A stretch of 50,034 nucleotides of DNA from Candidatus Thorarchaeota archaeon (GCA_013138615.1 WTCK01000070.1:1-50034), one strand, 5' to 3'. Positions 2,721-44,737 are shown, counted from the stretch's first letter. Program-made: numbers and translations. Notes: generated from the letters alone by a model not told the origin.

Positions 2721-2792
2721 TTAGTTGCACTCCCAATGCTTGCAATTACGTTTTATTCGGTATAAAACTCCAAAAAAGGTTTCTTCAGAGTT

Positions 2793-14684: not shown

Positions 14685-14685
14685 C

Positions 14686-15225: not shown

Positions 15226-15464
15226 GGTATCTCCACCACTTTGTTAGAGTAAGCTCCAAAAGGCTTTATCATATCGCATAGTCAGGCGCATGCTTTCCAG
15301 TGACGCGAGGGGCAATTCAACTCCAGAGTCTTTGTGTTTCGTCAACTTCTTGTGTGCCACCGACGTGCCGTTCGTTGATGTTCCTTTAAGAGTTACCTTT
15401 GCTACGCCAAATCGCTATGATAATATTGGTGTTGAGAGTCTGAAGCTGTGTTCAAGGTGATGTT

Positions 15465-21828: not shown

Positions 21829-21882
21829 CCCTCATTGTAAAGTCCTTTGGAGTTATATTTAAGCTCCTGTATTTCATGAAGT

Positions 21883-22440: not shown

Positions 22441-22691
22441 GATGGTTGCACTACACGCAACTCGCATCCCAATGTGATAAAGACATTGCCGTAAAATGGC
22501 TCAGTGAATTATGACAAAGACAAGGTTGTTTGTATTAGGATGTCAGATTAGTCGCAGTTCATAAGCATAAGGAACGTAATAGAGTTGCCAAGACTCTCCG
22601 GTGAATCTTTTAAAGGTCTTACAGAATGTGTTTACCGTTCCTCTCTGCGGAAGGCAGAAATTTCAACTTCGTATTCAGGAAGGGATTTTGA

Positions 22692-23636: not shown

Positions 23637-23642
23637 CTGAAC

Positions 23643-25653: not shown

Positions 25654-25669
25654 TTGACTCAGGGCTCCA

Positions 25670-25966
25670 TTATGATTCCCACAAATCGATGAGATTCCTA
25701 AGAGAACGGGCACGCATATCCTCGATGCGATATCTATAGATTTTGATTCGTCCAAAAACCTTCTCTTCAATAAGGCCTGTTTTCATAAGAACCTCGAGGT
25801 GTTGCTTCGTTGAGCTATGATTAAGGCCAACGCGTTTGCATAGTTCTGTGATGTTTAACTCGCTTGATGTTGCGAGTTCCCGGATTATCTTGATCCGTCC
25901 CCTCGAAGAGAACAGTTCTTCAATAGGAATCTTCGTCTGTGTTTGTAAATCCATAGGGGTCACCAC
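25670..25966 (-). CDS. ArsR-family winged-HTH transcriptional regulator
   Basis: 98 aa: RGRIKIIRELATSSELNITELCKRVGLNHSSTKQHLEVLMKTGLIEEKVFGRIKIYR. It lies 8 nt downstream of orc1/cdc6. Confidence 0.7.
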   Translation of the reverse strand: MVTPMDLQTQTKIPIEELFSSRGRIKIIRELATSSELNITELCKRVGLNHSSTKQHLEVLMKTGLIEEKVFGRIKIYRYRIEDMRARSLRNLIDLWES

Positions 25967-25974
25967 ATCGTTGA

Positions 25975-27168
25975 CTATTTTAGCAGTTCCAAAAGAAATC
26001 GTTCTAGCATCTCAGCGGGCACGTCAGAGAGGCCAATGAGTGTGGTCTGTCCTCTTTGCCCCGCTCCAGAGCGCTTCGTATCTAGTACGCCATGTGCATT
26101 AAGGTTTTGAACCCATTCCCAGACTTGCGTGTGTGCCCGTGGCTCTTCGTCATATTCCTCACAGACTGCTCGATACATCTCTTCAACCTCCCCCATTGTC
26201 ACATAGGCACTCCTAACTTCCTTAAGTTGTCTAGCTGCGGCTAGAAGGACTAGTTTGTTGTGAATTGGAAGTGTAGCGAAAATCTCCTTTCGGAGCTCGG
26301 GATGTGTGTCGACCTTTGCTTGGCGGGCATAGTCAGGGATTACGATTTTTGCGCGGTTACGATCAGCTTGCTTTCCTGCTCGCCATAGTAGTTCGATGGC
26401 GTATCTGGCATCTCCTTGCTCCGATGCGATGTCAGAAATAACTTGCAGTGTTTCATCCATTACCGCGTCATTCTCGAAAGCAATCTTTACTCTATCTTCT
26501 AGAATAGCACAGAGAGCTTCTGAACTGTATCTCTCGAATCGCATAAGATTCCGCTGGAGAGTGCTCAAAATGCTTGAATCAAGGACGTCTCCATCGAGAG
26601 GTATATTTCGTCCCACTGCAATCATGGAGAGTCGTTGTGGTGCGTTCAATCGATCATCCATCAAACGTGTAAGGTCATATAGAATGTTACCTCCCCTCTG
26701 ATTGATGAAATAGTCAAGTTCGTCTAGAATCAGGAGCAGATAACGGTCCTCCGCATCTAGGATTTCTACTAACATCTGCAAAAGTTCTTCAGGCGAGTGG
26801 CCTCGCCGGGGGAATTTCGGTTTGAATTCTCTTAACATTCGCAAATACACTAGATACTCGCTCTTGTTAATCCTGCAGTTGATGTGAAGCTTATGCAGGT
26901 GAATTCCGCGTCTCTCGGCAGCTTGAACCATTTGTTCTGTGAATCGCTTTGCAACCGCCGTCTTGCCCGTCCCAACTGGTCCTTCAATTATAAATCGCTG
27001 ACTGGTGCGTCCTGGAGTTGTTATGAGTGTCTTGAAGCTCTGTGCCAAGGCCCTTAGTTCTAGTTCTCGATGTGGAAGAGCTTCAGGAACATAGTCGATG
27101 GATAGAAATTGCTCTGACTTGAACACACTGCGCCGACCCAGTTCTTCCTCAACATAATCGTGGGGCAT
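25975..27168 (-). CDS. cdc6: Orc1/Cdc6 replication initiator
   Basis: 397 aa. Walker A GPVGTGKTA, Walker B LLILDELDYF, the initiator-specific region, and a C-terminal winged helix (GRGQTTLIGL). Confidence 0.95.
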   Translation of the reverse strand: MPHDYVEEELGRRSVFKSEQFLSIDYVPEALPHRELELRALAQSFKTLITTPGRTSQRFIIEGPVGTGKTAVAKRFTEQMVQAAERRGIHLHKLHINCRINKSEYLVYLRMLREFKPKFPRRGHSPEELLQMLVEILDAEDRYLLLILDELDYFINQRGGNILYDLTRLMDDRLNAPQRLSMIAVGRNIPLDGDVLDSSILSTLQRNLMRFERYSSEALCAILEDRVKIAFENDAVMDETLQVISDIASEQGDARYAIELLWRAGKQADRNRAKIVIPDYARQAKVDTHPELRKEIFATLPIHNKLVLLAAARQLKEVRSAYVTMGEVEEMYRAVCEEYDEEPRAHTQVWEWVQNLNAHGVLDTKRSGAGQRGQTTLIGLSDVPAEMLERFLLELLK

Positions 27169-27637: not shown

Positions 27638-28771
27638 ATGTCGTCCCAAGAGCAGTCTGTGAATTTTTGGCAAGGAAACCATGCTTGTGCGAGGGCTGCA
27701 ATCGCCGCAGGATGCAGATTCTTTGCAGGCTATCCGATAACTCCTGCTTCGGAGATTGCAGAAATAATGGCGCGTCGTTTGCCAGAGGTGGGAGGCGTTT
27801 ATCTCCAGATGGAGGACGAGATTGGAGCGATTTCAGCAATAATTGGTAGTTCGTGGGGTGGAAAGCTCACGATGACTGCCACTTCGGGACCCGGCTTCAG
27901 TCTGATGCAGGAGAACATAGGATATGCCATTATGACTGAAACCCCCTGTGTAATTGTTAATGTGCAACGTGCTGGACCTAGTACAGGACAAGCTACGAAA
28001 GCAGCCCAAGGTGACTTCATGCAATCCAGATGGGGAACACACGGGGATCATGAAAGCATTGTCTTGGCACCAAGCTCCGCTCAAGAAACTTACGAGCTTA
28101 CAATAAGGGCATTTGAATTATCAGAACATCTCCGACATCCGGTGATACTTCTCTCCGATGAGATAGTGGCACATTCCCGAGAGAGAGTGGTTGTGGATCC
28201 CAACCTAAATGTTACCATCAAGAGAAGACTAGCAAGAGTCGGTGAGCTGCCGTATGGAGCGGTGGACAAGGAAGGCAGGTCAATGATGTTGAGATTTGGA
28301 GATGGTCACAATCTACTTGTCACTGGTTCCACTCATGATGACCATGGCGTCAGGAAGACCGCTGATCCCAAAGTACATGATAGACTTGTACGCAGGTTAG
28401 CAATGAAAATTCAAGAGAATCGCGATTTCCTAGCGGATGTTGTCGTTGCCGGCCCCTCCGAAGCTGAATGGGGCATCGTTTCATTTGGCTGCACTTCAAG
28501 GTCAGTTGATGAAGTTATGACCACTGATACCAGTGCAAGCTCAATCAAATCTCTAAGACTGCGTACTCTTTGGCCGTTCCCAGATAAGGAAATGAAGGAG
28601 TTCGCCCAAACTGTGAAGCGATTGCTCGTGCCGGAGCTCAACTTGGGGCAGTTGGCCGGAGAGGTGTCGCGTGCAGTTGGCGAATCCGTTGATGTGGTAT
28701 CCCTTAACAAGATTGGAGGAGGACTCATGATTGAGCCTAATGAGATAGTTGCTGCGATGGCGTCAATCTGA
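27638..28771 (+). CDS. korA: 2-oxoacid:ferredoxin oxidoreductase, alpha subunit
   Basis: 377 aa. The N-terminus GNHACARAAIAAGCRFFAGYPITPASEI is the KorA/PorA signature, and the length is normal for an alpha subunit. No beta, gamma or delta subunit gene follows. Confidence 0.85.
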   Translation: MSSQEQSVNFWQGNHACARAAIAAGCRFFAGYPITPASEIAEIMARRLPEVGGVYLQMEDEIGAISAIIGSSWGGKLTMTATSGPGFSLMQENIGYAIMTETPCVIVNVQRAGPSTGQATKAAQGDFMQSRWGTHGDHESIVLAPSSAQETYELTIRAFELSEHLRHPVILLSDEIVAHSRERVVVDPNLNVTIKRRLARVGELPYGAVDKEGRSMMLRFGDGHNLLVTGSTHDDHGVRKTADPKVHDRLVRRLAMKIQENRDFLADVVVAGPSEAEWGIVSFGCTSRSVDEVMTTDTSASSIKSLRLRTLWPFPDKEMKEFAQTVKRLLVPELNLGQLAGEVSRAVGESVDVVSLNKIGGGLMIEPNEIVAAMASI

Positions 28772-31065
28772 GCACTAAACTGTTCTACACTCGATTGGCC
28801 GTCCTGTCCGTGTCCGTCCACTGAGATTGTGAGTGTTAGATTCGTTCGCATCCAGATGATTATGGCTAGAAACCTGTTCGTGGTTTCGAGCCATGGACTA
28901 CTCACTTCGAATGTGATGTTGTGAGCTCCAGGATTAATCCAAAGAGGCAATGGAATCGAGCTAGGTACGTGCGGATTCAGATTAATCCATACGAAGAACG
29001 GACCTACAACATGATCTACAAAGACACTGACATTGATTGAACTTGGAATGCTGCCATTGTCATCGTGGATATCTAGATTCATGACGATGGTTTCTCCATA
29101 GAATGCCTCCATAATCACAATGTCTACATCCATTATTCCATAGATAATTAGGTCGAAATCGAATGGCCCTATTGCGATGTATTCTGTGTCGGTGATGCTT
29201 ACAGTAATCGTATGTACACCGAGACTCACATTGTGAGCTATTGCAAACGTGAGATTCACAGTCGTATCAGTTAGGATGAGTTCAGTTGTGGAAACCTGGT
29301 CTTCGCCGTCATTAAGAGTTGTCCCAATGGTCTGTTGGAGAGCCCATTCGGACTCTATCATGAAACTAACAGTTACATTGTGACCACGCATGACGCCCCA
29401 TATTGCTTGAGCAGAGGAGAATGTAAGAGGATAATATGTCATGAACTCAATGAGAAGTGTTGTTTCATAGACATGCTTTGAAGGCTCGCCAAGGATGATT
29501 AATGAGTAGTTTTTCAATCCCACTTGTGTTGTTTGCGTTGTGTACCATTGCAGCAGAATCAGACCCGTCACATCGCTCGAACCGGTTGCCAATGCATAGC
29601 CAGTGGAATTGCAAAATACGACAGAGATACCTCCAGCATCAGCATCCAGTGGGTTTGTCAGATGTAGCAATATCTCAGTTTCATAGCCAAGAACCGAAGG
29701 AAACAGTATCTCATAGGTGACTGCTGGGATGAATGAAATATTGAGTAATTCTTGGTAATGCATCTGGACGTAGTGAGTTGTTTCATTTGTTTGAACTGAA
29801 ATTACTCCTGTGCCCCAGCTTGTTTCCGGAATCAGAAAGGAGAGCCTAAAGCAGCCGGATTCATTGGTCGCTCCTTGGGCTACGAGTTCTGTACTGTTTC
29901 CGATTGTAAGAATAACAGATAGAGGAATGGCATTGATTGTAGTATTGGCTGCTTGATCTGTCACAACAACATCAATGCTAATTGACTGCCCACATATAGC
30001 AGGCTGTGCACTCTCGACATTGACAATCACATCTCGTTGGAGCGCGGTAATCAACACAGAAGCTGAAGCTACTTGATACGAGGGGGCGGTCGCAGTTACA
30101 TTGACACAGTAGAGGCCCGGGTCTACTGCAAAAGTGATTGTGGAACTGTATGTACCGTTTCCCAGGTTGGTCATGTTTCCATTTGTAAATTCAGTACTCC
30201 ATCTAACTATGCTATCGTTTATCGGCTCAGAGAGATGATTAAGATGTTTCACAAGCAATTCTGCCAAGTCAGCATGGCTCCCGTCGTGTGACTGGCAGTA
30301 TACTGAGTCAGAATGCGAGATTACTATCAAGCTAGATTCCGGGGGTTGAACAGTGAGTGTGAGAGATTTCGAAAGCGGATGAAATGCATCGGTGCCATTA
30401 CATGAAACTGTAAGGTTGTAGTCCCCGGGTGGCCCAAGCGATGAAGTCCAGTTCACTGTGACTACACCGTTATTGTCTGTTGTATCATTTGAGTGCATCA
30501 CTAATTGGCTGTTTGAGTCATAGATATCTATTGAAACTGGATTATTCGAGAGAGTTAAGTTGCTGTTGTGCGCGCTCACAATCTCAAGATCGAAACTCTT
30601 GTTTGTGCCATAAGGGACAGATAGTGGCTCCAGTGCGTATACTGTTAGTGGGCCCTTGGTTATGTTGATTTCTATGGTTTCACTCGCTCCTTGGGAATAA
30701 CCATCGAAGGTTTCGATATTGAAGATGACAAAGCCATTGGTCCCATTGATGCCTGGGAATGTATGTTCAGGCTGGATTGTGTATGAGGATGTGAGAATCC
30801 TAGTTTCTGGTGATGGCGGTATGAAATAGTCGTCATCAAAAACAGGTCCAAAGTCTGTGACTATTGCGAAAGAAACATAGCACCATCCATCCTCGCTGAA
30901 GTCAGCAGTGACCTTGGCTACCATGTGAATGGTTTCGCCAACCTCGTACGTTAGCTTGTCGGTTTCGAAGGAGTCAAACTCGAAGTAAAAGGCGCTAACT
31001 GGCGACATAAGACCAAAGGTAAGGAATACTGCGGCTGCGACGATAACTAGTGCGTTTCGATTCAA
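28411..31065 (-). CDS. Large secreted protein with repeated beta-rich (Ig-like) modules and many N-x-S/T sequons. The last ~120 codons are antisense to korA.
   Basis: 884-aa ORF with a TTG start (a TGA lies immediately upstream in frame). The signal peptide is MNRNALVIVAAAVFLTFGLMSPVSA. The composition is T/S/N/V/I-rich and no C-terminal anchor is recognisable. The reading frame stays open through 28771-28411, opposite the korA 3' end. Confidence 0.7.
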   Translation of the reverse strand: MNRNALVIVAAAVFLTFGLMSPVSAFYFEFDSFETDKLTYEVGETIHMVAKVTADFSEDGWCYVSFAIVTDFGPVFDDDYFIPPSPETRILTSSYTIQPEHTFPGINGTNGFVIFNIETFDGYSQGASETIEINITKGPLTVYALEPLSVPYGTNKSFDLEIVSAHNSNLTLSNNPVSIDIYDSNSQLVMHSNDTTDNNGVVTVNWTSSLGPPGDYNLTVSCNGTDAFHPLSKSLTLTVQPPESSLIVISHSDSVYCQSHDGSHADLAELLVKHLNHLSEPINDSIVRWSTEFTNGNMTNLGNGTYSSTITFAVDPGLYCVNVTATAPSYQVASASVLITALQRDVIVNVESAQPAICGQSISIDVVVTDQAANTTINAIPLSVILTIGNSTELVAQGATNESGCFRLSFLIPETSWGTGVISVQTNETTHYVQMHYQELLNISFIPAVTYEILFPSVLGYETEILLHLTNPLDADAGGISVVFCNSTGYALATGSSDVTGLILLQWYTTQTTQVGLKNYSLIILGEPSKHVYETTLLIEFMTYYPLTFSSAQAIWGVMRGHNVTVSFMIESEWALQQTIGTTLNDGEDQVSTTELILTDTTVNLTFAIAHNVSLGVHTITVSITDTEYIAIGPFDFDLIIYGIMDVDIVIMEAFYGETIVMNLDIHDDNGSIPSSINVSVFVDHVVGPFFVWINLNPHVPSSIPLPLWINPGAHNITFEVSSPWLETTNRFLAIIIWMRTNLTLTISVDGHGQDGQSSVEQFSAQIDAIAATISLGSIMSPPPILLRDTTSTDSPTARDTSPANCPKLSSGTSNRFTVWANSFISLSGNGQRVRSLRDLIELALVSVVITSSTDLEVQPNETMPHSASEGPATTTSARKSRFS

Positions 31066-31186: not shown

Positions 31187-31552
31187 ATGGTCATTAGGTT
31201 GAGGAATGCTACAATCAAGGCAATTGAAGATACAGAAACAAAAAGGTTGAAGCTTCTGAGAATTGTATCCAAGGCTGAAGGAGCCAAATTGACATTGGAA
31301 CTTCCAGAAGCACTTTGCGATAAGATGAATGTGCGTGATGGCATCGTGGTTATTGTCGATTCGAAACCAATTGCGAAAGGAGACAAAAGCAAACTCTATG
31401 CAGAGGGCGAAATCTTCAAGATTGGAGAGGGTGGCGACTTTGAGGTGGTGGGAGCGATAGGTGGTTTGAGGTTCGTCCTTACTCTTGCTAATCCAACGCC
31501 AGCGAAGAAGAAGGTTTTTGCTGCTGATAGATTCTATTTGATGCTCTTATAG
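31187..31552 (+). CDS. Putative RNA polymerase subunit Rpo8 (RpoG), RPB8-like
   Basis: 121 aa. By eye it aligns with yeast Rpb8. LRIVSKAEGAKLTLELPEAL...DGIVVIVDS matches CRIEAAS...CKLTLDINVELFP..DSLTVTIAS. LYAEGEIFKIG...VVGAIGGLRFVLTL......ADRFYLMLL matches YVMYGTAYKF....YYSFGGLLMRLEG.....ENAYLLIRR. It lies next to a TFB gene. Confidence 0.45.
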   Translation: MVIRLRNATIKAIEDTETKRLKLLRIVSKAEGAKLTLELPEALCDKMNVRDGIVVIVDSKPIAKGDKSKLYAEGEIFKIGEGGDFEVVGAIGGLRFVLTLANPTPAKKKVFAADRFYLMLL

Positions 31553-31757
31553 CGATCTAGCACGGTAACAAATTGGGGTTTCTGAGTTTTTCGTCAATGG
31601 ATTTCTGGCAGGCGGGAGTGCCAGTGTTGAATAGTTTCAGTGACCTCTCATTCTGAGGAGGCCATCAGTAACTGCTTGGCCTCTGTGCAAGTCCATTTGA
31701 GTAGACGAATAATTTCTGTGAACGTATTGAATCCTTCTGAAACTCAGTTATGAGTTG

Positions 31758-32816
31758 ATGCCTAATTCGATACGGGTGTGGTCATTGACTGATGGAATGA
31801 TTGAATCATCAAGTTTGACGTCTTGGTCTTGTCCTGATTGTAGCGGGCGATTGCTACACAGTCAAGGATACATAGTCTGTTCTGAATGCGGTATTGCAAT
31901 CTCGAGAAAGTATGTCAATCCCACTTACCAGATGGGTGAGAAAGTGCGTAGCGATGCTCCGGATGCGACCATGTACGTTTCTCTCGGTAATAGAATGCAC
32001 ATTGTTGATGGGCTTGGTAGTTACATAGGGTTTCACAAGGACTGGTATTTTCGTGATGCACACGGCCATTCACTATCCGCGGTAAGCCAGAAGAGATTCA
32101 AGCGTCTGAAGAGAATATACAGTACTCAAGTGCGAATTGGAGGGAATGAGGCAAAATATCGTGCTCTTAGAACACTGAATCATGTGTCAAAGCTATTGAT
32201 GCTGAATGAACAAGTGCGTGATCGCACTGCATACCTATACAAGAAAGTGGTTTCGGAATCTTCTGACAGGGTGACCAACAACATTCTGCTCATGGCAGTA
32301 TGTCTCTTGATGGCAGTGAGGGAATTCAAAGATGGCGCACCGATAACACTTGAAGAAATTGCTGATGTTTTCGAGAAATGCGGACATAGAGTGAGCGTAA
32401 GATCAATGGTTAGAGAGGCACTTAGACTCAAGTCTATGATGGGATATGCTCCCGCGATTCGTAAGCCAAGGGACTATGTGCCTCGAATCTTGTCAATGTT
32501 AATGAATAATCAGAGAGTCACAAGCAAAGTAAGGCTTCGTGGATGGGACTTGAAGGCCTATGAGAGTGCCCTTAGAGATAGAATCTTTGAAATTCTTGAG
32601 TTGATTCCTGCGTCTAAACGTGGGGGACGGAATCCATTCATCTTCACCGTATCAGCAGCCTACGCTAGCGATCGGTTAATTGCTAATGAATATGGTAGAC
32701 GGACAGTATTGACTCAAAAGCTGGCGTCCACAGCAACGCAGGTTGCTGAATACAGTATTCGTGACCATTTTGGTATGATGAAGAAACTTATTCAGCCTGT
32801 AGAAAAGGCAGTCTAG
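31758..32816 (+). CDS. tfb: Transcription initiation factor B (TFIIB family), divergent paralog
   Basis: Zn ribbon CPDCSGRLLHSQGYIVCSECGIAIS followed by two cyclin-like repeats (RTAYLYKKVV...ILLMAVCLLMAVRE; FIFTVSAAYASDRL). ATG at 31758 is preceded by an in-frame TTG at 31755. There is a ~25-aa N-terminal extension before the ribbon. Confidence 0.85.
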   Translation: MPNSIRVWSLTDGMIESSSLTSWSCPDCSGRLLHSQGYIVCSECGIAISRKYVNPTYQMGEKVRSDAPDATMYVSLGNRMHIVDGLGSYIGFHKDWYFRDAHGHSLSAVSQKRFKRLKRIYSTQVRIGGNEAKYRALRTLNHVSKLLMLNEQVRDRTAYLYKKVVSESSDRVTNNILLMAVCLLMAVREFKDGAPITLEEIADVFEKCGHRVSVRSMVREALRLKSMMGYAPAIRKPRDYVPRILSMLMNNQRVTSKVRLRGWDLKAYESALRDRIFEILELIPASKRGGRNPFIFTVSAAYASDRLIANEYGRRTVLTQKLASTATQVAEYSIRDHFGMMKKLIQPVEKAV

Positions 32817-32981: not shown

Positions 32982-34679
32982 ATGTGTCTTTTGGTGACTA
33001 GTCATGATGTACTCATTGTAGAGTGTCCCAATACACGATGCAATGGCTGTCGCTACTTTTCAGCCCCGATATGTGGCAAGCTTGAATCTCTACGGGACAC
33101 CTCAAATCATCAAGCAAGGGCGATTATTTTGGAAACTGAAAAGAATCTTGTCCATCTTGGAGGGCATAACATAGGACGCCCACTAGAACCCCCTTGGCAT
33201 GCTGAGGGCTGGGAATCCGTGTACATAGGCGAAAATGAATCTGATCTTCGGAATGTTGTGGATGCCTATGTTGTTGGACCATATTTAGCTGTATTCTATC
33301 TGCAAGGAAAGAATCAGATTATGTATAGGTCATATCCATTAGTTAGAACATCTCTTGAATATGCGCTTCTAGATGAATTGTCTGGCAAGACGGGGGACCT
33401 TGCAAATAGCTATTCGGACTTTAGAGTTAGCATTTCTGAAAGAATCAGTGTCACGTCATCCCGGGTTTCATCAAGTATCACTGAGTCACTTCCTGAGATA
33501 AGTGAATCAACCAAGAAAAGGATTTCAGATGTTGTTGCCCATAGAATGACTGTATTGGGATTGTTCTTCTCATTATTGCTGGACGATGAAGTCGAAGAGG
33601 TCTTTCTGGACAGGCCAGGAGCAGTGCTATACTTTGATCATCAGAGGTTTGGTCGATGTCATTCCAATTTCACTTTAACTGACAATATGGTGTCACGCCT
33701 TGTTACACTGATGCGAGCAGAGAGCAATCTACATCTGGATCGAGCAAATCCTTCATTAAAAACCGACATGCGAATAGCCGGCACGCTTCTTCGTTTTTCT
33801 GCATGTGTACCACCATTAAGTCCAGACGGCCTGCACCTTGAAATTCGAAGAGCACGATCGAGTCCGTACACCATTTTGGATTTGATAATTAATGGTACAT
33901 TGACCGTTGGCGCAGCAGCAACACTACTTGCTGCAATAGCTGGACGCTTCAACATTACTATTACTGGAGGGCCGGGTTCTGGCAAGACTACTTTATTGAA
34001 CGCACTGGATATGGTTACACCAACCACTTGGAGAAAAATCTACATCGAGGATGCTGTTGAGAGTAGATTAGTTGAAGGGCACCATCAAATCAGGATAAAG
34101 GTCGACCCAGTGGATGAAAAAAGCAAACAATCTGACAAGAGTATTGAGATAGTGAAGAGCTTGCATCGATCACCTGACTATCTGATTCTAGGTGAGATTC
34201 AGACAGCTGAACACAGCCAAGCATTGTTTCAAGCGGTAGCAGCAGGACTGCGTACAATTCAGACATGTCACAGCGACTCAGCAGCAAGTCTCATGTCCCG
34301 GTGGATAATAGGACACAAAGTTGATTCATCCAGCATTGCTTTGATGGATGTCATAGTTACTCTCGACCGGCCAGTGCCTGGACAGTCAAGACGTCATGTG
34401 AAGGAAATTGTCGAAGTGAGGAGAGATATTGACCACCGCGGTGTGGTCTTTGTGGGACTTAACAAGGTCTTTGATTTGCGAAGCTCAGGGACCGAGGTCA
34501 GAGAGTGGGCTAAGGACGGAGCTTTCAGATTGCGTGCACAGACTGCCAGTTGTAAGGATTACGTTCAAGTGTTTGAAAGGGCAGCGGACGGCCTCAGATT
34601 TGCACTTGAAGAAGATTCCATTGACTCGGTTACCTCACTGGTCGGGGAATTGTGGTGCAATGAGCACGATATAGTTTAG
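32982..34679 (+). CDS. Type II/IV secretion-family ATPase (VirB11/FlaI/PilB/TadA-like)
   Basis: 565 aa. Walker A ITGGPGSGKTTLLNAL (nt ~33963-33992), Asp box IYIEDAVE, Walker B DYLILGEIQTAE and His box TCHSDSA. The N-terminus is Cys-rich (C2, C15-x4-C20-x2-C23, C31). Confidence 0.8.
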   Translation: MCLLVTSHDVLIVECPNTRCNGCRYFSAPICGKLESLRDTSNHQARAIILETEKNLVHLGGHNIGRPLEPPWHAEGWESVYIGENESDLRNVVDAYVVGPYLAVFYLQGKNQIMYRSYPLVRTSLEYALLDELSGKTGDLANSYSDFRVSISERISVTSSRVSSSITESLPEISESTKKRISDVVAHRMTVLGLFFSLLLDDEVEEVFLDRPGAVLYFDHQRFGRCHSNFTLTDNMVSRLVTLMRAESNLHLDRANPSLKTDMRIAGTLLRFSACVPPLSPDGLHLEIRRARSSPYTILDLIINGTLTVGAAATLLAAIAGRFNITITGGPGSGKTTLLNALDMVTPTTWRKIYIEDAVESRLVEGHHQIRIKVDPVDEKSKQSDKSIEIVKSLHRSPDYLILGEIQTAEHSQALFQAVAAGLRTIQTCHSDSAASLMSRWIIGHKVDSSSIALMDVIVTLDRPVPGQSRRHVKEIVEVRRDIDHRGVVFVGLNKVFDLRSSGTEVREWAKDGAFRLRAQTASCKDYVQVFERAADGLRFALEEDSIDSVTSLVGELWCNEHDIV

Positions 34680-34752: not shown

Positions 34753-34974
34753 GTGATTAGGTGCATATTGATGGCTGATAATGATGACCTTCTTCACGAT
34801 ACTCACGCAGGCCCATTAGTGGAGGAGAGCCTGCTACTAGGCATAGCGGTAGTGACTGTTTCTATCGTAATCGCAGTAATCCTGCAAGCCACTGGTTGGG
34901 CTCAAGATGTAGTCACTAGCCTTCTTCAGCTTTTAGAGAATAGCTGGAGTGATTTTGCTGGGCTGGTCCCGTAG
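34753..34974 (+). CDS. Small Flp-like / class III signal peptide pilin candidate
   Basis: 73 aa from GTG 34753, or 67 aa from ATG 34771. The sequence is MADNDDLLHDTHAG|PLVEESLLLGIAVVTVSIVIAVIL...: a Gly, then Glu at +4/+5, then a ~22-aa hydrophobic helix and a short C-terminal tail. This is the architecture of Flp/Tad and archaeal class III signal peptide mini-pilins. A TTAAAATA box lies at ~34727. Confidence 0.5.
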   Translation: MIRCILMADNDDLLHDTHAGPLVEESLLLGIAVVTVSIVIAVILQATGWAQDVVTSLLQLLENSWSDFAGLVP

Positions 34975-35223: not shown

Positions 35224-37170
35224 TCAAGTTAACATATATCGACGCCTGATTAATGGTATGCTAACTAGGCTAATTGACAAACAAGAACCAATAGCTAGGG
35301 CGACTATTCCGATGCCTTGAGCCGCTGAAACATCGGCTTCTCCAATCACAATTACAGCTGATCCTGCGTATGATTGAAGAGAGCCTGATGCTTCAGATTC
35401 GTACGATAGAAGATAGCTACCCGCTGTGGAGGGAATCGCTAGGTGCAGACTGATCAAACCATGATTACTGCTATCTATTTCCATATTAGCTGATAGCCAT
35501 CCGTAACTTATTGGAATGCTTCTTAGTAATGACCCATTCAACCCTTGAATGGTAAGTTGAACGTATATCTCCTTGAGCTGCGGTATTATTTCGTAGTAAT
35601 CGAAAATAATTATGACAGGTATCGTTTTGGCTACAGTGAAACTATACTCCAGGATGACCGAGAGTTCGTATGCTGACTCATTTCCGCTGCATACAATTAG
35701 GAAAACAAAGTGGCCTTCACTGGAAGGTGCCAAGAAAGCCATAGTTGCAATGCCGACCTGATTAGTTATCGACTGTGAAATGAGAGTGCTATTAATCGAG
35801 TGGACTTCCACTAGTTTGTTGGAATAGTTGGCATTGTTATTGATAAGGTGGACTACAAGCAATATCTCTTGTTGGGGAGATGCAAATCCCAAGATGTTGC
35901 TCTGATTCAGTGACAACGTAGGACGAAACCATATTGGTTCACTGAACCAGTAAGTTCCATTGGTGACGTATTGTGCATCATTGACCGTAATGATGAATTC
36001 CCTGATTCCTTTAGGTCCTGTTATGGGTAGAAAGAGCTGAGTTGAGTTGCTGTTGCCAGTCAGGGGTTCTGTAACTGCTTTTTCAGTTAGTGTATCGAGA
36101 ATAGTAATGGATGCACCGGGAATCGGTCGATTCAGAATGTCCTGCACCACCACTGAGATCTCAAGTTCGGTCCCAGTGACAATGTACTCTGGTAAGAACG
36201 CTTCAATCAGCACAGGGCTTGTGACAATGAAATGAATTTGAAGAATTGAAATGCTGTATCGGTCAGTTCCCGTGTATTCAATTATCAGTGTGTGGTTGTT
36301 CAGAGAGATTCCTTCATTGATTCGTAAATCAAGAGTTGCTACGCCTGAGCCGTTGGTCGTTATCGAGGATTGTGTTGTGCCATCAAGCGATACCATCATG
36401 AGGCCGTTGGGCAATGTTTCTTCGTTGGCCCAAAGCGTGAGGGAGAGAGTAATTGAATCGTTCAAAGTGACAATATCAGATAGAGCATTGTCGTGTTTGA
36501 TGAGGGTCGCAATCTGCTCTACTGTTATGGAAAACGATGTTTCTACGCCTTTTTGAAAAAGCGCCAAGTTCCCTTCATAGACAACAGAAACAGTATTCGC
36601 ACCTAGCTGTGCCCAAGAAGTGTTACAGTGGAAAGAGAAACTGACACAGCCGGTGTCATTGGTGATACCAGAGCCAAGTGGCAATGAATCACTGAACACC
36701 ATAAGAGAAGCGCCTGAAAGCGATTCGTTCATGTCGTTAAGGAGGCGGACTATGAGATTCAGATCGTCACCTGGCGCCAAATCACTGTCCTTGACTTGAA
36801 TCTCCATTGTTGTTGCTGAAACAACTGTAAGTGGCATCCACTGGCAGGAAGGCGAGAGTGAAAGTGATTGATTGCCGCGAAAAGTCGCATTAATCATCAT
36901 AAAACCCAGTGGATGTTCGGAGGGGAGAGGCCAATCGATGTATGCTAAGCCATTTGAATCGGTCATGTCCGAACCAAGAAACGAATCGTGGGTCTGGTCG
37001 AAGAATTCTATTCTCTGGTTGACAACTGGGTCCCCATAGGTTCCATTTTGCAATAACTGAGCAGTAATGGTTATGGTTTCCCCTCTGGAAACAACATTTT
37101 CGCCTTCAGCGGAAACGGTAGTCATGCTGCTTATGAATAGAAGAGAAACAGCAGCTAAAACAATCAGCAA
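35224..37170 (-). CDS. Large secreted surface protein, Ig-like repeats, C-terminal transmembrane anchor
   Basis: 648 aa with a TTG start. The signal peptide is LIVLAAVSLLFISSMTTVSA|EGEN. It has numerous N-x-S/T sequons and repeated D.NG.A modules (TDSNGLAYI, NDTGCVSF, TNGSGVATL, TNQVGIATM). The C-terminus is GIGIVALAIGSCLSISLVSIPLIRRRYMLT (TM plus basic tail). Confidence 0.75.
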   Translation of the reverse strand: MLIVLAAVSLLFISSMTTVSAEGENVVSRGETITITAQLLQNGTYGDPVVNQRIEFFDQTHDSFLGSDMTDSNGLAYIDWPLPSEHPLGFMMINATFRGNQSLSLSPSCQWMPLTVVSATTMEIQVKDSDLAPGDDLNLIVRLLNDMNESLSGASLMVFSDSLPLGSGITNDTGCVSFSFHCNTSWAQLGANTVSVVYEGNLALFQKGVETSFSITVEQIATLIKHDNALSDIVTLNDSITLSLTLWANEETLPNGLMMVSLDGTTQSSITTNGSGVATLDLRINEGISLNNHTLIIEYTGTDRYSISILQIHFIVTSPVLIEAFLPEYIVTGTELEISVVVQDILNRPIPGASITILDTLTEKAVTEPLTGNSNSTQLFLPITGPKGIREFIITVNDAQYVTNGTYWFSEPIWFRPTLSLNQSNILGFASPQQEILLVVHLINNNANYSNKLVEVHSINSTLISQSITNQVGIATMAFLAPSSEGHFVFLIVCSGNESAYELSVILEYSFTVAKTIPVIIIFDYYEIIPQLKEIYVQLTIQGLNGSLLRSIPISYGWLSANMEIDSSNHGLISLHLAIPSTAGSYLLSYESEASGSLQSYAGSAVIVIGEADVSAAQGIGIVALAIGSCLSISLVSIPLIRRRYMLT

Positions 37171-37472: not shown

Positions 37473-40400
37473 ATGACAAAGAGAGATGAGAAGGTGATAC
37501 AGATATTCAGTCGCACGCATCTAGGACTGTGGACCTTGGTCAGAACAATGTGGATTGGTGGCACGATTATATGTGGTATCTACATGATGTTCGTGTACTT
37601 GTTACCTCTTGTCGGTTTGATCCAACAGCCGCCTGTGCCTTTGAAACTGACTGTCGAGGTCATTGTTTGTGCAATACCAATCCTGTCAGGTGGGTTGCTG
37701 ACCAGTGAGAGAATTCGTAATGACGAATTGTCAGTTCTTATCGATGAAAAGTTCCTTGTTATTCAGCTGGATAGGCATGTTGTTGTGACTTGCGCACTAG
37801 AACTTGCTTCTGTGCCTAGCTCAATTGTTGTTTTTCCGGGTAAGGAGCCTAGGTATAATGCCGCACTGCTATTAGCACTGCGTGCAGGCTTGGATAGCAG
37901 AGTTTCCATGGCCTATGAGGTGGGAGTAGAGAAAGGGGAACCATTCCTGCGGTTGTTCATAACTGCATCTGGAAAGAATCTAACGGAAATCAAGGAGATT
38001 TTGAGGCGAGAAGCCACTCGAACGGAAGCTATTCTTTTGGCTTCTTTGAACGGGGTTGAGGTGCATCAGCTAGGAGAAGACAAGCTGAGGGGAGCGAGTG
38101 AAATAGTGCATCGTTTAGACTCGTTGAGAAAGCCTTCAGCATTGGTTCATGATGACGGGATGCTTCAGTCACTCACATTCATTGTGGGAATCCCCAGAGT
38201 TGCGCCTTCGATTGATGCCTCGCAGGTTGGCACATTCATCTCTACTGCAATCAAACAGAGATACTCTGTCACACTTACTTGTGTATTCTCAAGTGCAAAA
38301 GCGGGCAGAGAGAGGAAAAGAATGGAAGGAGAATGGAAAAACATTCGCGCAAAGGAGCTAAGGAATGAGGATTCCTTGACTGATCATGCCAACAAGAGAA
38401 AACTTCTAGATCAACATGAGAGAATGCATGGTGATTCTGGATGGTTTGATAACTCCGTGTACGTTCTTGCTAAGGCCAAGAATACTGCTGAACTTGAAAG
38501 GGTGACGAATGGTGTAAACGGTCTTATCGCCTCAATTTGGGGTGGGGAAGGAAACATTTCCTTGAAAAAAAGAGGAATTCGAGGCAGAACTGTATGTAGA
38601 CTTATCACCAGACGCCATTTCAAACGTCAGAAAATCCATGTGAGTTCCTTAGTGGGCTACGTAAACACCCCTATACAACAGCTTCCTGTGATTGCAGCGA
38701 CCGTGGCTCCAGTTTTTCCAGTTCCGCTAAGGAAGCTGATAGATAATGATCTAATCATTGGAGAGACAATCTACGGAGGGCGACGCATTAGTGATATCGG
38801 GATTAGACCGGAGTGGCTGCGAGAACATGTTGCAGTTCTCGGCGCTACGGGCACGGGTAAGACAAATCTTGTGAAGAAATTGATGCTTGAATTGAGTTTG
38901 AAGACTGATGTTCCTTGGTGGGTGTTTGATATCAAAGGATCTGAGTATGCGGACCTTGCTGGATGGGACTCCGACATTCTCATACTCAGTCCGGGAAAGG
39001 ATGCCTCTTTCGTGATGGATTTGTTAGACATTGAAATGGATTCAAGTGAGGTAGATGCGCATGCAACTTTTGCGATACTAAGGGAGCTCATAAATGAAAG
39101 AGGCGTGTCATCTGAGCTTTCACCTGCCATGGAGAAGCTCTTACGAGAGTCAGTAATGGAGTTAGCGGAATCAAGGCATGCAACGAAGTCAGTCCAAGTC
39201 CTCAACCAGATTATCTCGAAGTTGGCTGGCAATGATCGCTTTGGAAGCATGACTAGGGATGCGCTTCTTAACCGTCTTGAGATATTATCACGTGAACCCC
39301 TTGGGTCCATACTGAAAGGGGGAGCAGAAGCACTCAAGATTTCTACTTTGTTGAACAAGCGTGTGGTATTCGACATGCGCCACATTGCAAGGGTAGGTGG
39401 GATGGATGCGGTTCGAATCCTCTACAATCTTGTCGCCAAGAGAATATTCGACAGTGCCATGAAACGCGGAATAAAGCCTGGACTGCATCATGTGGTAGTT
39501 CTTGAGGAGGCGAGCAATTTGGTGCCTGAGAGCTACACAAGGCATTCCGCAGCAGATGTCACCACTGGTGAGTCGATGGTTATGCTTCAACGGGCCACCG
39601 GACAAGGAGTCATTGTTGTATCAACAAGACCGAACATTTCCTCGAACATTTTAGCCAATACTGCAACTAAGATTACATTTCGTCTGCCGTACGACAGCTC
39701 CATTGGGTCTAAGTATATGGCTCTCAATGCTGAACAGGAAGAGTACCTCAAATCACTGAAATGCGGCAGAGCCCTCATTCATGTTCCAAGTTCTAGTACT
39801 TTCGAAATTGCCACTAAGCTGTTTGTACCCATGTCTGGAATCTTAGGAAAGGATGCCAAAGAAGCTGTCACTCAAGGCTGTGAGAAAGCTGAATTAAAGA
39901 CAGTCGTGCACGAAGCGTCTGTTATTATCAAACCTGAGAGGGTGGTGTCTGATCGACTAGGTGAGCTGGCAAACCATGTAGTTGCTTTTCTCGCATCTAG
40001 AGATATGGCCACTGAGATTGAGATTAGGAGCCTATTGATGACTCTGGATTCGCAATTTGCTGAAAATGACATTGCTGAGATAATCCGCGACCTTGTTTCT
40101 CTGGGAGCTATTGCACGCGAAGCGCTTTCACTTGTACCTGGGGGTTTTGTGTTTACAGTACCAGGCAGAGAATTGGAAGCTGTTAGGAACGTCATTATGA
40201 ATTACATGACTCGCCGCCTGGACTCGGTTCATAACCTTGAATATCAGAAGCTGGATTCGAATGGAGCACAATTGATTGCCTGCAATCATGCTATACTCAT
40301 CTTGCCAAACCATCTGAAAGCATCTTCCATTGAATCGGTTTTAGGACAGATTGGAGCGTGCATGAGTGAGCTCGGGAATAATATCAACAAGTTGGTGGTT

Positions 40401-41225
40401 GTGGTGAGAGGAAGCATCGCCGCAGCCAAATTAAGAGAACTCATTGACCGTTCAGAAACATTTGATGCTGTGACTGTAATCTCAGCTTTTCCCAGCTCTC
40501 TAAACAAGGTAGTGGATGAACTTGTCCATGGAAAGCCACATAGGAGCGAAGTGGTTGAAGAGCAGCTTGGTGTGGTTGCCAAATTCTCCAAATCAGAAAG
40601 GGTTGATTTACGAGGAGCTGTGCATGATGTCGGTTCGGCTACGAGTCGTGCAGTCCAAATGCGTCTCTGGTTTGGTTTGATCGAAGACTTCGTTGATTTG
40701 TCGAATGGACATATTGTGTGGGATGCCCTTCTAGAATTCATCGACACTACTGCGTTGCAGTCACTCAAAGGGAGGTCGGCCCCCATGAGTGTCGAGGAAG
40801 GCAAACGTGCTCTCACAGAACTCCTTGCTGATGAGGTGCTTGTGGCGTTACGTGTTGGAGCCGAGAAGCGATATACTGATTTCGAGAAGAACCTCTGGAT
40901 TGTAAATTCATCAGTGCTGAAAGAACTCAAGGAGAGAGCTATTAATCTATTAATTGAAGAGAGTGGGAAACAGAATGAATCTATTTCTCAAGGCCATGAA
41001 TACTATGATTTCTGTGTTGGTAAAAAATCTTATGTTGTATTTCCAACACAGCAACAGCTTAACACGCTTCTGAATCTTCATAGTGATGTGGCATGCCGGA
41101 TTTGCGGGTCAACGCAAGTGATATGCCTCCTAACAGCAGCTGAGTATCTTGATGATGGTGCCATAGTTCCAGCGAATTTGATCATGAAAACGATGGATGA
41201 TGCGATTGCAGAAATGTTAGTATAG
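37473..41225 (+). CDS. Membrane-anchored giant HerA/VirB4/FtsK-superfamily ATPase (DUF87-like core) with long unassigned N- and C-terminal regions
   Basis: 1250 aa. There are two N-terminal hydrophobic helices (MWIGGTIICGIYMMFVYLLPLVGLI; LTVEVIVCAIPILSGGLLT). Walker A is HVAVLGATGTGKTNLVKKLM (nt ~38841). Walker B is HHVVVLEEASNLVPE (nt ~39487). The sensor region VIVVSTRPNISSNILANTATKITFRL is HerA-like. About 350 aa before the core and 450 aa after it match nothing I recognise. Confidence 0.75.
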   Translation: MTKRDEKVIQIFSRTHLGLWTLVRTMWIGGTIICGIYMMFVYLLPLVGLIQQPPVPLKLTVEVIVCAIPILSGGLLTSERIRNDELSVLIDEKFLVIQLDRHVVVTCALELASVPSSIVVFPGKEPRYNAALLLALRAGLDSRVSMAYEVGVEKGEPFLRLFITASGKNLTEIKEILRREATRTEAILLASLNGVEVHQLGEDKLRGASEIVHRLDSLRKPSALVHDDGMLQSLTFIVGIPRVAPSIDASQVGTFISTAIKQRYSVTLTCVFSSAKAGRERKRMEGEWKNIRAKELRNEDSLTDHANKRKLLDQHERMHGDSGWFDNSVYVLAKAKNTAELERVTNGVNGLIASIWGGEGNISLKKRGIRGRTVCRLITRRHFKRQKIHVSSLVGYVNTPIQQLPVIAATVAPVFPVPLRKLIDNDLIIGETIYGGRRISDIGIRPEWLREHVAVLGATGTGKTNLVKKLMLELSLKTDVPWWVFDIKGSEYADLAGWDSDILILSPGKDASFVMDLLDIEMDSSEVDAHATFAILRELINERGVSSELSPAMEKLLRESVMELAESRHATKSVQVLNQIISKLAGNDRFGSMTRDALLNRLEILSREPLGSILKGGAEALKISTLLNKRVVFDMRHIARVGGMDAVRILYNLVAKRIFDSAMKRGIKPGLHHVVVLEEASNLVPESYTRHSAADVTTGESMVMLQRATGQGVIVVSTRPNISSNILANTATKITFRLPYDSSIGSKYMALNAEQEEYLKSLKCGRALIHVPSSSTFEIATKLFVPMSGILGKDAKEAVTQGCEKAELKTVVHEASVIIKPERVVSDRLGELANHVVAFLASRDMATEIEIRSLLMTLDSQFAENDIAEIIRDLVSLGAIAREALSLVPGGFVFTVPGRELEAVRNVIMNYMTRRLDSVHNLEYQKLDSNGAQLIACNHAILILPNHLKASSIESVLGQIGACMSELGNNINKLVVVVRGSIAAAKLRELIDRSETFDAVTVISAFPSSLNKVVDELVHGKPHRSEVVEEQLGVVAKFSKSERVDLRGAVHDVGSATSRAVQMRLWFGLIEDFVDLSNGHIVWDALLEFIDTTALQSLKGRSAPMSVEEGKRALTELLADEVLVALRVGAEKRYTDFEKNLWIVNSSVLKELKERAINLLIEESGKQNESISQGHEYYDFCVGKKSYVVFPTQQQLNTLLNLHSDVACRICGSTQVICLLTAAEYLDDGAIVPANLIMKTMDDAIAEMLV

Positions 41226-44467: not shown

Positions 44468-44737
44468 GTGGACTACTGTGAGAAGCCAATGCTCTTCGAG
44501 TTGCTAAGCCCACTTACTGATTTTGCGATTCTCATTGCAGGGTACTTTGCCGAAATATGGGAATTTTTGATTTTCATTGGTCGCGTTTCAGCAAGCGTCA
44601 TTGTGCTTATCGGAGCAATACTATGGTTTACAGAGGCCAATATGAAGAGAGGTAAGGGATTAGTGTTTAGTGGCATACTCTTGGCAATCGTAATTCAGTA
44701 CTTTGTTATGTATCCTCCAGCGTTCAGCCTCGGTTAA
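44468..44737 (+). CDS. Small integral membrane protein (2-3 TM), unknown function
   Basis: 89-aa ORF (GTG start; an alternative ATG gives MLFELLSP). The hydrophobic segments are DFAILIAGYFAEIWEFLIFIG, VSASVIVLIGAILWF and LVFSGILLAIVIQYFVMY. Confidence 0.45.
   Translation: MDYCEKPMLFELLSPLTDFAILIAGYFAEIWEFLIFIGRVSASVIVLIGAILWFTEANMKRGKGLVFSGILLAIVIQYFVMYPPAFSLG

Follow-up and report, generated by a model that had tools for sequence, protein, structure and literature searches.

A predicted membrane-anchored HerA-clade ATPase family of Asgard archaea and its Thorarchaeota-specific C-terminal tail

The ATPase Gene and Its Conservation

The DNA studied here, a stretch of 50,034 nucleotides from Candidatus Thorarchaeota archaeon (GCA_013138615.1 WTCK01000070.1:1-50034, hereafter the window), is an ordinary piece of Thorarchaeota chromosome, carrying genes for MCM, Orc1/Cdc6, a Hel308-like helicase, HerA-NurA, an Arf-like GTPase with Roadblock, S10, and GlmS. 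Our subject is the gene located at positions 37473..41225 on the plus strand, i.e., an uninterrupted open reading frame (ORF) that starts with ATG and encodes a protein of 1250 residues. An earlier note, drawn from the sequence alone, had pointed to this ORF as coding for a large membrane-anchored ATPase, and we found the ORF to be as that note described it. From its N-terminus to its C-terminus, the protein comprises a predicted transmembrane hairpin, an alpha/beta N-domain, an ATPase domain, and a long tail.

Searched against 5.8 billion proteins, the sequence retrieved about 120 protein clusters of 1150-1290 residues, which cover 91-100% of the query at 50-93% identity and which, where named, belong to Thorarchaeota, 'Promethearchaeota', or Sifarchaeia. 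We also scanned the GTDB species representatives, using an alignment of Thor-type sequences only, and recovered 73 archaeal loci with a full-length orthologue (39-93% identity), one of them on a complete Thorarchaeota chromosome. Among 120 homologues, 278 positions are at least 97% identical, many of them within the C-terminal 450 residues, and conservation spans the whole protein. The gene is real and conserved in Thorarchaeota. The possibility that two genes had been fused by a sequencing frameshift, which the earlier note had left to be checked, is excluded by the same length and domain order in the approximately 120 clusters and the 73 species genomes. More generally, the chance that we are dealing with an artefactual fusion or a decaying pseudogene is negligible, since the ORF is uninterrupted and strongly conserved along its full length; a few shorter fragments exist in the databases, but most of the short entries are marked as partial or lie on short contigs.

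Membrane Hairpin, N-Domain, and ATPase Domain

Residues 1-800 were modelled by AlphaFold2 with 120 homologues (predicted local distance difference test, pLDDT, 79; predicted template-modelling score, pTM, 0.70). The hydropathy profile displays two N-terminal hydrophobic segments, at about residues 25-52 and 53-79, and the model places helices at 17-47 and 58-82, so that the two N-terminal transmembrane helices proposed earlier are borne out. These helices, joined by the short loop QQPPVPLK, form the predicted hairpin (37521..37718, plus strand), in which Y37, Y42, P45, P56, E62, P69, and G73 are conserved. A third hydrophobic stretch, at 102-122, is modelled as a beta strand and not as a transmembrane helix. 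We infer that the N-terminus and all of the protein outside the hairpin are cytoplasmic.

The hairpin is followed by an alpha/beta N-domain (residues 85-420; 37725..38732, plus strand), which is delimited by the AlphaFold2 model, by Foldseek matches to TrwK/VirB4, and by profile matches across Asgard lineages. This domain of about 340 residues is the sequence signature of the Asgard family, and it ends in a conserved linker motif, L..Y.H.P..P.P....P.FEIP.

Next comes the RecA-like ATPase domain (residues 427-785; 38751..39827, plus strand), recognized through Pfam DUF87, PDB profile matches to HerA, an alignment with the canonical HerA of the window, and Foldseek. Its Walker A motif, GATGTGKT (residues 457-464; 38841..38864, plus strand), is conserved: G457, T459, G460, G462, K463, and T464 are invariant in the homologues and A458 and T461 nearly so (at least 90%). 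The Walker B motif, VVVLEEA (residues 674-680; 39492..39512, plus strand), has invariant E678 and E679 and takes the LEEA form also found in the HerA of the window. The core motifs that had been read from the sequence are thus all present and conserved; VVVLEEA and VSTRPN...TKITFRL are invariant in the 120 homologues, and so is R719; the domain also bears a TRP arginine motif. Judging by these motifs, the ATPase domain is catalytically intact.

Placement of the Motor

The motor was placed by ranking hidden Markov model and PDB-profile scores. Among Pfam families, only the DUF87/HerA central domain is recognized (residues 429-608, E=5.5e-16, 59.8 bits), accompanied by marginal matches of TrwB_AAD_bind, HerA_C, and FtsK_SpoIIIE that are centred on the P-loop. 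A profile built from 31 family members and compared with PDB sequences matches HerA first (E=4e-12 to 1e-8), then DndH/DptH (2e-5), then FtsK/EssC-type proteins (1e-4 or weaker); neither VirB4 nor TrwB is among its matches at E values of up to 1. In NCBIfam, CedD is the best model (43 bits, for a cut-off of 600), and the HerA, CedB, and VirB4 models come next, all of them far under their cut-offs; the best CedD E-value among 31 Asgard relatives reaches 1e-27, which we take as still far under the 600-bit cut-off. By these sequence scores, the motor is assigned to the HerA clade of the FtsK-HerA superfamily as a member of no curated family. The earlier description of a membrane-anchored HerA/FtsK/VirB4-superfamily protein agrees with both Pfam and Foldseek.

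Structural comparison gives another order. With residues 1-800 as query against the PDB, Foldseek ranks full-length TrwK/VirB4 of the R388 type IV secretion system (T4SS) first (E=3.9e-20 to 1e-15, about 800 aligned columns), followed by HerA hexamers (1e-15 to 1e-10) and by VirB4 C-terminal domains alone (1e-10). For the ATPase domain, target-normalized TM-scores are 0.72-0.76 with VirB4 C-domains, 0.71 with DndH-C, 0.62 with TrwB, and 0.53 with HerA. The modelled N-domain resembles that of VirB4 by its fold, a likeness that is supported but not proven because the full-length VirB4 alignments have low global TM-scores (0.25-0.32, with a root-mean-square deviation of about 20 A).

The order of transmembrane segment, N-domain of about 350 residues, and ATPase domain had been considered unusual. 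It is in fact a known layout, that of VirB4 and of CedB/CedD (PMC11868833, PMC11823120), and full-length VirB4 is the best structural match. CedD and CedB of Sulfolobales, both essential for DNA import, are described as having a transmembrane segment followed by an N-domain, which can be superposed on part of its VirB4 counterpart, and by a HerA/VirB4-like ATPase (PMC11868833, PMC11823120). Two features remain unusual, namely the 450-residue tail, which is restricted to Thor-type genomes, and the occurrence of the N-domain and ATPase, in many Asgard lineages, as a family encoded by a stand-alone chromosomal gene.

The C-Terminal Tail

Residues 791-1250 were modelled at a pLDDT of 81, and the model contains two winged helices at a pLDDT of about 90. 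Module 1 (39942..40532, plus strand) is formed by a winged helix (residues 824-895) and an alpha-beta-beta-beta-alpha-beta domain (residues 900-1020), and is defined by the model, by winged-helix Foldseek matches, and by conservation, with the invariant motif VVVRGSxAAAKLRE. A disordered linker (residues 1022-1053) leads to module 2 (40638..41222, plus strand), which the model and conservation resolve into a second winged helix (residues 1056-1145) and a helix with a beta-rich domain (residues 1146-1250). The C-terminal extension of about 450 residues noticed earlier, with its terminal Cys pair CRICGS, is therefore real, and this pair belongs to a larger conserved cluster, H1175, C1181, and C1208-x2-C1211-x6-C1218, CRIC being the sole CxxC of the whole protein. 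We propose that these five residues are likely to form a metal site, because the His/Cys cluster is kept even in the most divergent members.

The whole tail has no significant Foldseek match in the PDB or in BFVD. Its sub-threshold matches include many winged-helix proteins, i.e., MarR, PadR, RTP, RPC subunits, Nse1/3, and ORC. A profile of the tail finds no match among PDB sequences and, in the 5.8-billion-protein database, only fragments of the same family. The two modules are confined to the Thor-type subfamily, apart from one 937-residue protein of unknown origin with only the alpha/beta domain of module 1, and long homologues of other, untyped lineages give sub-threshold winged-helix Pfam matches in their own tails. 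The similar order of secondary structures in the two modules is suggestive of an internal duplication, for which hhalign offers weak support (E=0.02-0.04, probability 1-3%). As modelled, the Thor-specific tail would be DNA-binding-like, i.e., built of DNA-binding-type folds. Hence, the earlier statement that some 800 residues of the protein are unassigned holds at the level of sequence families, since neither flank of the ATPase core matches any; it does not hold at the level of the fold, where a VirB4-like N-domain and two winged helices can be discerned.

The alpha/beta domains of the tail also bear on a different function, namely a HerA-based anti-virus defence in which fused nuclease-like effector domains would be activated by the HerA ring, as in SIR2-HerA or DUF4297-HerA. 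The ATPase core is recognized by the HerA and mad8 models of PADLOC and, weakly, by NCBIfam models of anti-phage HerA, the tail gives weak Foldseek matches to FokI, Can2, XPF-ERCC1, and a phage PD-(D/E)XK protein, and the Freyarchaeota homologue adjoins a Hachiman-like pair. However, the PADLOC and NCBIfam matches are limited to the generic ATPase core, those of the tail are not significant (E > 1e-3), there is no separate effector gene, and the gene occupies a fixed syntenic housekeeping position in 73 species and not variable islands. Moreover, a nuclease-type D/E/K set is conserved in neither of the alpha/beta domains, and we rejected them as nucleases since conserved acidic or lysine residues are absent. 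A role in defence is very improbable.

Extent of the Family and Chromosomal Context in Asgard Archaea

With residues 51-1250 as query, HMMER was run exhaustively against 1.84 billion cluster representatives and yielded nine full-length representatives (40-55% identity) and many proteins of 800-1440 residues that match over the N-domain and the ATPase at 22-32% identity. The named relatives of this second type come from Helarchaeota, Lokiarchaeota, Odinarchaeota, Hodarchaeota, Freyarchaeota, Jordarchaeales, Baldrarchaeia, Ranarchaeia, and 'Asgardarchaeia', whereas a Korarchaeota relative has the ATPase only. An N-domain profile made from 14 diverse members detects sequences outside its build in Hodarchaeota (3.5e-45), Lokiarchaeota (2.4e-44), Jordarchaeales (1.3e-39), and Odinarchaeota (9e-21); in the 5.8-billion-protein database, it finds only fragments of the same family, and neither this profile nor that of the tail reveals any other architecture. 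Most family members have N-terminal hydrophobic segments. The family defined by N-domain and ATPase is thus present in at least ten Asgard lineages. Full-text searches of the literature brought up no paper describing it, and the Ced papers and the Ced-pilus paper make no mention of Asgard archaea. What is new is therefore this undescribed Asgard family together with its Thorarchaeota-specific tail, and what was already known is the layout of transmembrane segment, N-domain, and ATPase.

Five Thorarchaeota metagenome-assembled genomes contain two loci each (L048/L079, L015/L033, L057/L069, L031/L074, and L023/L075). Two of these genomes, E44_bin77 (L048/L079) and HM6_B34 (L015/L033), combine a short contig that shares 86-93% identity with the query and a long one that shares about 53-55%, and the gene of a 648-residue surface protein, described below, lies upstream of the ATPase gene at both loci; these pairs look like mixed bins and not like paralogues. 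For the remaining three pairs, in which the two loci each show about 52-55% identity, a mixed bin is less evident.

We examined the surroundings of the homologues in other Asgard lineages. In Helarchaeota and Ranarchaeia, the homologue is followed by genes for an UPF0020 methyltransferase, a metallo-beta-lactamase-fold protein, and translation (EF-G-type in Helarchaeota; S10 and EF-1alpha in Ranarchaeia). In Lokiarchaeota, a radical-SAM gene and L2/L23 flank the homologue, with Orc1/Cdc6 at a distance of 7 kb; in Baldrarchaeia, it has PPDK on one side and a DRG GTPase on the other, and PCNA, primase, and GINS are close by; and in Jordarchaeales, it is found among metabolic genes, 6 kb from S10. 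Housekeeping neighbourhoods of this kind (S10, EF, GlmS, Orc1/Cdc6, PCNA/primase) are shared by Thorarchaeota, Sifarchaeia, Ranarchaeia, Helarchaeota, Lokiarchaeota, Baldrarchaeia, and Jordarchaeales genomes, and because of these contexts we conclude that the gene is vertically inherited, stand-alone, and chromosomal, without a conserved operon partner. No viral relatives occur in IMG/VR contigs, and tblastn searches of plasmids and phages return only generic DUF87 ATPase cores (23-29% identity). A mobile-element origin of the Helarchaeota homologue, which is found on several contigs of about 22.4 kb, was considered and rejected, its neighbours being housekeeping genes.

In the window, a replication cluster with the Hel308-like helicase, MCM, and Orc1/Cdc6 genes extends from 17414 to 27168, and the cumulative GC skew climbs steadily from about 21 kb onwards. 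The ATPase gene may sit near a replication origin, because Orc1/Cdc6 is 6-10 kb away from the homologue in Sifarchaeia, Ranarchaeia, and Lokiarchaeota genomes too (L003, L009, and L087).

Such contexts raise the question of an FtsK/SpoIIIE analogue, i.e., a membrane-anchored double-stranded DNA pump that would clear or segregate the chromosome at the division site, its winged helices reading DNA as FtsK-gamma does. That the gene stands alone, apparently as a single copy in each genome, and is inherited in housekeeping surroundings throughout the Asgard lineages would suit this role, and so would the vicinity of Orc1/Cdc6 in Thorarchaeota and the three lineages just named, the PCNA/primase/GINS genes beside the Baldrarchaeia homologue, the failure to find T4SS-type partner genes nearby, and the order of membrane anchor, motor, and C-terminal winged helix, which parallels that of FtsK. 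Nevertheless, the motor belongs by its sequence with HerA (PF01580 scores 17 bits for a cut-off of 24, and FtsK-type PDB matches are far weaker than those of HerA), and the VirB4-like N-domain is absent from FtsK. The winged-helix tail exists only in Thor-type proteins, while a core segregation role should need it everywhere. Furthermore, no FtsK-gamma family or structure appears among the Pfam, Foldseek, and profile matches of the tail, which are generic winged-helix matches instead. On balance, we regard an FtsK-like role, which would be a variant of the DNA translocase proposed below with another biological purpose, as doubtful.

Gene Neighbourhood in Thor-Type Genomes

The gene order is conserved in Thor-type genomes. 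It begins with a surface protein (minus strand), a 121-residue protein, a TFB paralogue, a TadA/VirB11/FlaI-like ATPase, a pilin-like protein of 67-73 residues, and (tRNA-Glu); it continues with a 648-residue surface-anchored protein with immunoglobulin (Ig)-like repeats (minus strand), our ATPase (plus strand), an amino-acid kinase (minus strand), S10, GlmS, and an 82-residue protein with two transmembrane helices. The 648-residue protein (35224..37170, minus strand) starts with a signal-like segment, contains Ig-like (MG/Big) repeats, and ends in a transmembrane anchor. Upstream sequence is included in 73 Thor-type loci, and in every one of them the gene of this protein is the immediate upstream neighbour of the ATPase gene, divergently oriented in 72 and on the same strand in L070; any functional link between the two is hypothetical. 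In one Thorarchaeota lineage (L001/L002, 8536-9808), an IS605 OrfB/TnpB-type gene is inserted between the two. The 'Asgardarchaeia' homologue is likewise flanked by two C-terminally anchored surface proteins, and at this locus (L007) we noted a beta-helix surface protein upstream (7912-9786) and an unassigned 861-residue protein downstream (12876-15461). Such flanking was not seen in the Helarchaeota, Ranarchaeia, Baldrarchaeia, Lokiarchaeota, and Jordarchaeales loci examined.

The TadA/VirB11-like ATPase and the pilin-like ORF are situated 2.5-4.5 kb upstream of the membrane ATPase gene. In the window, the former is a TadA/TrbB/VirB11/FlaI-like secretion ATPase with a Cys-rich N-terminus (32982-34679, plus strand) and is followed by the Flp/type-IV-pilin-like ORF (34753-34974, plus strand), whose product (HAG|PLVEESLLLGIAVV..., with Glu at +5) is 58-94% identical in 65 fetched loci. 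No PilC/TadB-type platform gene is found anywhere in the 50-kb window. Ahead of these genes stand a divergent TFB paralogue (31755-32816, plus strand), with a CPDC..CSEC Zn ribbon and a cyclin repeat (57 bits for a TFB cut-off of 384), and, always ahead of the latter, the conserved 121-residue protein of no known family (31187-31552, plus strand). The combination of a TFB paralogue, pilus-like genes, and a membrane ATPase recalls the TFB3/Ups/Ced set of Sulfolobales, but may just as well be no more than synteny. In both L034 and L067, the block that runs from the gene of the 648-residue protein, past the ATPase gene, to GlmS and the gene of the two-transmembrane protein has been moved by an inversion away from the TadA/pilin/TFB block. 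An operon uniting the membrane ATPase with the TadA/VirB11-like ATPase, pilin, and TFB genes is thus unsupported, given these inversions and the absence of the linkage in other Asgard lineages.

The 82-residue protein (44489..44737, plus strand; two transmembrane helices and a basic KRGK loop), encoded 3.2 kb downstream of the ATPase gene, after GlmS, provides a further lead. It is conserved at 59-94% in 62 fetched loci, and its gene lies 1-6 kb from the ATPase gene in Thorarchaeota genomes. A homologous ORF of 79 residues (L009, 8058-8297) is located 82 bp upstream of the Ranarchaeia ATPase homologue, on the same strand, with 33-42% identity that is significant with composition correction; a small two-transmembrane ORF directly upstream of the homologue is seen in Ranarchaeia only and is not adjacent in the other lineages examined. 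The topology of this protein would fit VirB2/CedA1-type pilins or VirB3, a lead which finds no sequence match to CedA1/TedC/VirB2 or VirB3 in the PDB, nor to any Pfam family.

These neighbours bring forward the main alternative, in which the motor would act on proteins, as a VirB4-like assembly ATPase that extracts or inserts pilins or surface-anchored proteins and builds a filament or an adhesin layer. Bacterial VirB4 energizes pilus biogenesis in T4SS. Full-length VirB4 is the top structural match, a membrane-anchored surface protein is the constant upstream neighbour in Thor-type loci, two such proteins flank the 'Asgardarchaeia' homologue, small hydrophobic pilin-like ORFs are found nearby, and the conserved E62, P69, and G73 of the second transmembrane helix suggest intramembrane contacts. 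On the contrary, the ATPase is HerA-like by sequence, the characterized HerA being DNA translocases, the predicted tail is made of winged helices, and surface-protein neighbours are missing from the loci of the five other lineages mentioned above. We therefore consider the assembly of surface proteins unlikely.

Two further observations concern the window. An 884-residue surface-protein ORF (28411-31065, minus strand) overlaps the 3' end of a pyruvate-ferredoxin-oxidoreductase gene (27638-28771, plus strand) by 361 nt (28411-28771); its C-terminal stretch looks low-complexity, and the overlap could reflect read-through or a frameshift at the end of the latter gene. An Arf/Ras-like small GTPase is encoded near a Roadblock/LC7-domain protein (7278-9741, minus strand), both being typical 'eukaryotic signature' genes of Asgard archaea.

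Proposed Function

The idea of the earlier note that membrane-tethered ATPases of this kind pump DNA or protein substrates across membranes is plausible for this protein. We propose that the protein is a membrane-docked DNA translocase, a reading to which we attach a probability of about one half. It is favoured because the characterized motors of the HerA clade move DNA, because CedB and CedD import DNA, and because the tail appears to be built of DNA-binding-type folds. According to this reading, the two-helix hairpin would hold the protein in the cytoplasmic membrane, with the remainder in the cytoplasm, and the N-domain, placed beneath the membrane, would serve docking or oligomerization. 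The ATPase would form a hexameric ring and, by hydrolysing ATP, thread DNA through its pore. In Thorarchaeota, the tail modules would project beneath the ring and there bind or select either DNA itself or a partner attached to DNA, in a manner comparable to the FtsK gamma domain. The process served would be DNA movement at the membrane. As for its purpose, Ced-like DNA uptake or exchange between cells is slightly favoured over an FtsK-like clearance of chromosomes, although the data do not separate the two. The surface-anchored neighbour, the TadA/VirB11-like ATPase with the pilin-like ORF, and the two-transmembrane protein can be taken as leads that point to a surface or DNA-transfer apparatus.

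Several results weigh against a DNA translocase of this kind. The scores of curated models are far under their cut-offs, not only for CedD (see above) but also for CedB (22 bits, precisely 21.8, versus 700) and for VirB4 (TIGR00929; 18 bits, precisely 18.2, versus 643), and the VirB4-like N-domain rests on whole-chain alignments with the low global TM-scores already given. No VirB6/CedA-like polytopic membrane protein is encoded in the 50-kb window, none appears in the annotations around the homologues that we examined from other Asgard lineages, and no pilus ATPase is found near those homologues either. The pilus-like genes of Thor-type genomes form a separate unit, because the inversions in L034 and L067 split the two blocks, and their linkage to the ATPase may be plain synteny. 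Finally, the alpha/beta domains of the tail are devoid of conserved acidic residues of nuclease type, and winged helices also serve protein-protein contacts.

A more specific version of the DNA translocase can be formulated, namely that a DNA pump of the Ced/VirB4 type, anchored in the membrane and independent of mobile elements, would be transmitted vertically in Asgard archaea, and that a DNA-recognition module made of two winged-helix/metal-binding units would have been fused to it in Thorarchaeota. We regard this version as possible and put it forward tentatively.

Membrane-bound HerA/VirB4-type ATPases are the engines of Ced and Ted, the only known archaeal systems of chromosomal DNA exchange, studied so far only in Thermoproteota. 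To these the Asgard gene adds a sister-type family not described before, which at least ten Asgard lineages possess and inherit with their core genome. If its product moves DNA, it would bear on how Asgard cells exchange or segregate their chromosomes, on the age of DNA-transfer motors encoded by the host and not by plasmids, and on the membrane-associated DNA transactions that were open to the archaeal ancestor of eukaryotes. If it is indeed a Ced/VirB4-type pump, the Asgard archaea, which are the closest prokaryotic relatives of eukaryotes, would possess a means of their own to transport chromosomal DNA across the membrane or along it, whether for its exchange between cells or for its clearance from the division site. 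If its substrate is a protein, it would mark an unknown surface-assembly machine of Asgard archaea. The Thorarchaeota-specific tail is of interest in itself, as a conserved region of 450 residues that has no relatives by sequence and probably contains a metal site. Homologues are found in Lokiarchaeia, a class with cultured strains, which makes the family a testable target.

Comparison with Known Systems

The window itself offers a direct comparison with canonical HerA, encoded at 2793-4316 (minus strand) and adjoining NurA at 4313-5476 (minus strand), a pair that the earlier note had correctly recognized. In this region (2121-7152, minus strand), there is no adjacent Mre11/Rad50, and the pair is flanked by CTP synthase and by a 199-residue protein without a family match. 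The alignment between the two ATPases is limited to residues 449-769 of the large protein (25% identity, E=5e-11; common motifs LEEAxxxxPES and (T/Q)RP), which agrees with the view that they have only the ATPase core in common. They share the DUF87 core, the Walker A motif, an EE-type Walker B, and a QRP-type arginine motif, and HerA provides the best PDB sequence-profile matches. On the other hand, NF040937 scores 26.8 bits for a cut-off of 800 and NF040819 is not reported for the large protein; the HerA model aligns from position 117 on, which at the level of sequence leaves the region where a HAS barrel would lie (the first 116 positions or so) unmatched. Unlike canonical HerA, the large protein is predicted to be membrane-anchored, with an alpha/beta N-domain of about 340 residues and a C-terminal tail, and its gene is not beside nurA, mre11, or rad50; its neighbours are the surface-protein and amino-acid kinase genes.

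The predicted plan of the protein recalls that of FtsK/SpoIIIE, with an N-terminal membrane anchor, a ring-forming motor of the same superfamily, and a winged helix modelled at the C-terminus. The differences lie in the motor, since PF01580 matches only the P-loop (residues 451-477), in the membrane anchor, which has two helices versus four in FtsK and is here followed by a VirB4-like N-domain, and in the tail, with two winged-helix/alpha-beta modules and a Cys cluster versus one gamma domain. Type IV coupling proteins (VirD4/TraG/TrwB) show a marginal likeness: PF10412 scores 20.6 bits for a cut-off of 20.5, over residues 439-519 only, of a model of 387 positions, and TrwB matches the ATPase by structure, with the TM-score given above, while providing no sequence-profile match. 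As for the HerA proteins of defence systems (SIR2-HerA, DUF4297-HerA, and MADS), they share the ATPase core, but they come with a separate effector and reside in variable islands, those of SIR2-HerA and DUF4297-HerA being soluble, whereas here a membrane protein is encoded at a fixed housekeeping locus without an effector gene.

VirB4/TrwK is the best structural match over the 800 N-terminal residues, and its C-terminal domains superpose on the ATPase; the hairpin ahead of the N-domain also recalls VirB3-VirB4 fusions. The sequence tells them apart, with TIGR00929 under its cut-off, no VirB4 Pfam family (CagE_TrbE_VirB / AAA_10) listed, no PDB VirB4 profile match, and a HerA-like LEEA Walker B. 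Moreover, the Asgard gene lies in no T4SS operon and was not found on plasmids.

The closest parallel is to CedB/CedD of Sulfolobales (TedB/TedD in Thermoproteales). The Asgard protein, far under the family cut-offs, is not an orthologue of these proteins, its N-domain of about 340 residues forms an Asgard-specific sequence family of its own, both CedB and CedD lack the 450-residue winged-helix tail of the Thorarchaeota protein, and neither CedA (VirB6-like) nor CedA1 (VirB2-like) is encoded within 8-10 kb of the gene. Yet, CedD is its best-scoring NCBIfam model, and the marginal TrwB_AAD_bind match occurs in both. Like the Asgard gene, those of CedB and CedD are chromosomal and not plasmid-borne, and their products are predicted to share with residues 1-790 of the Thorarchaeota protein the whole succession of a transmembrane segment, a VirB4-like N-domain, and a HerA-clade ATPase.

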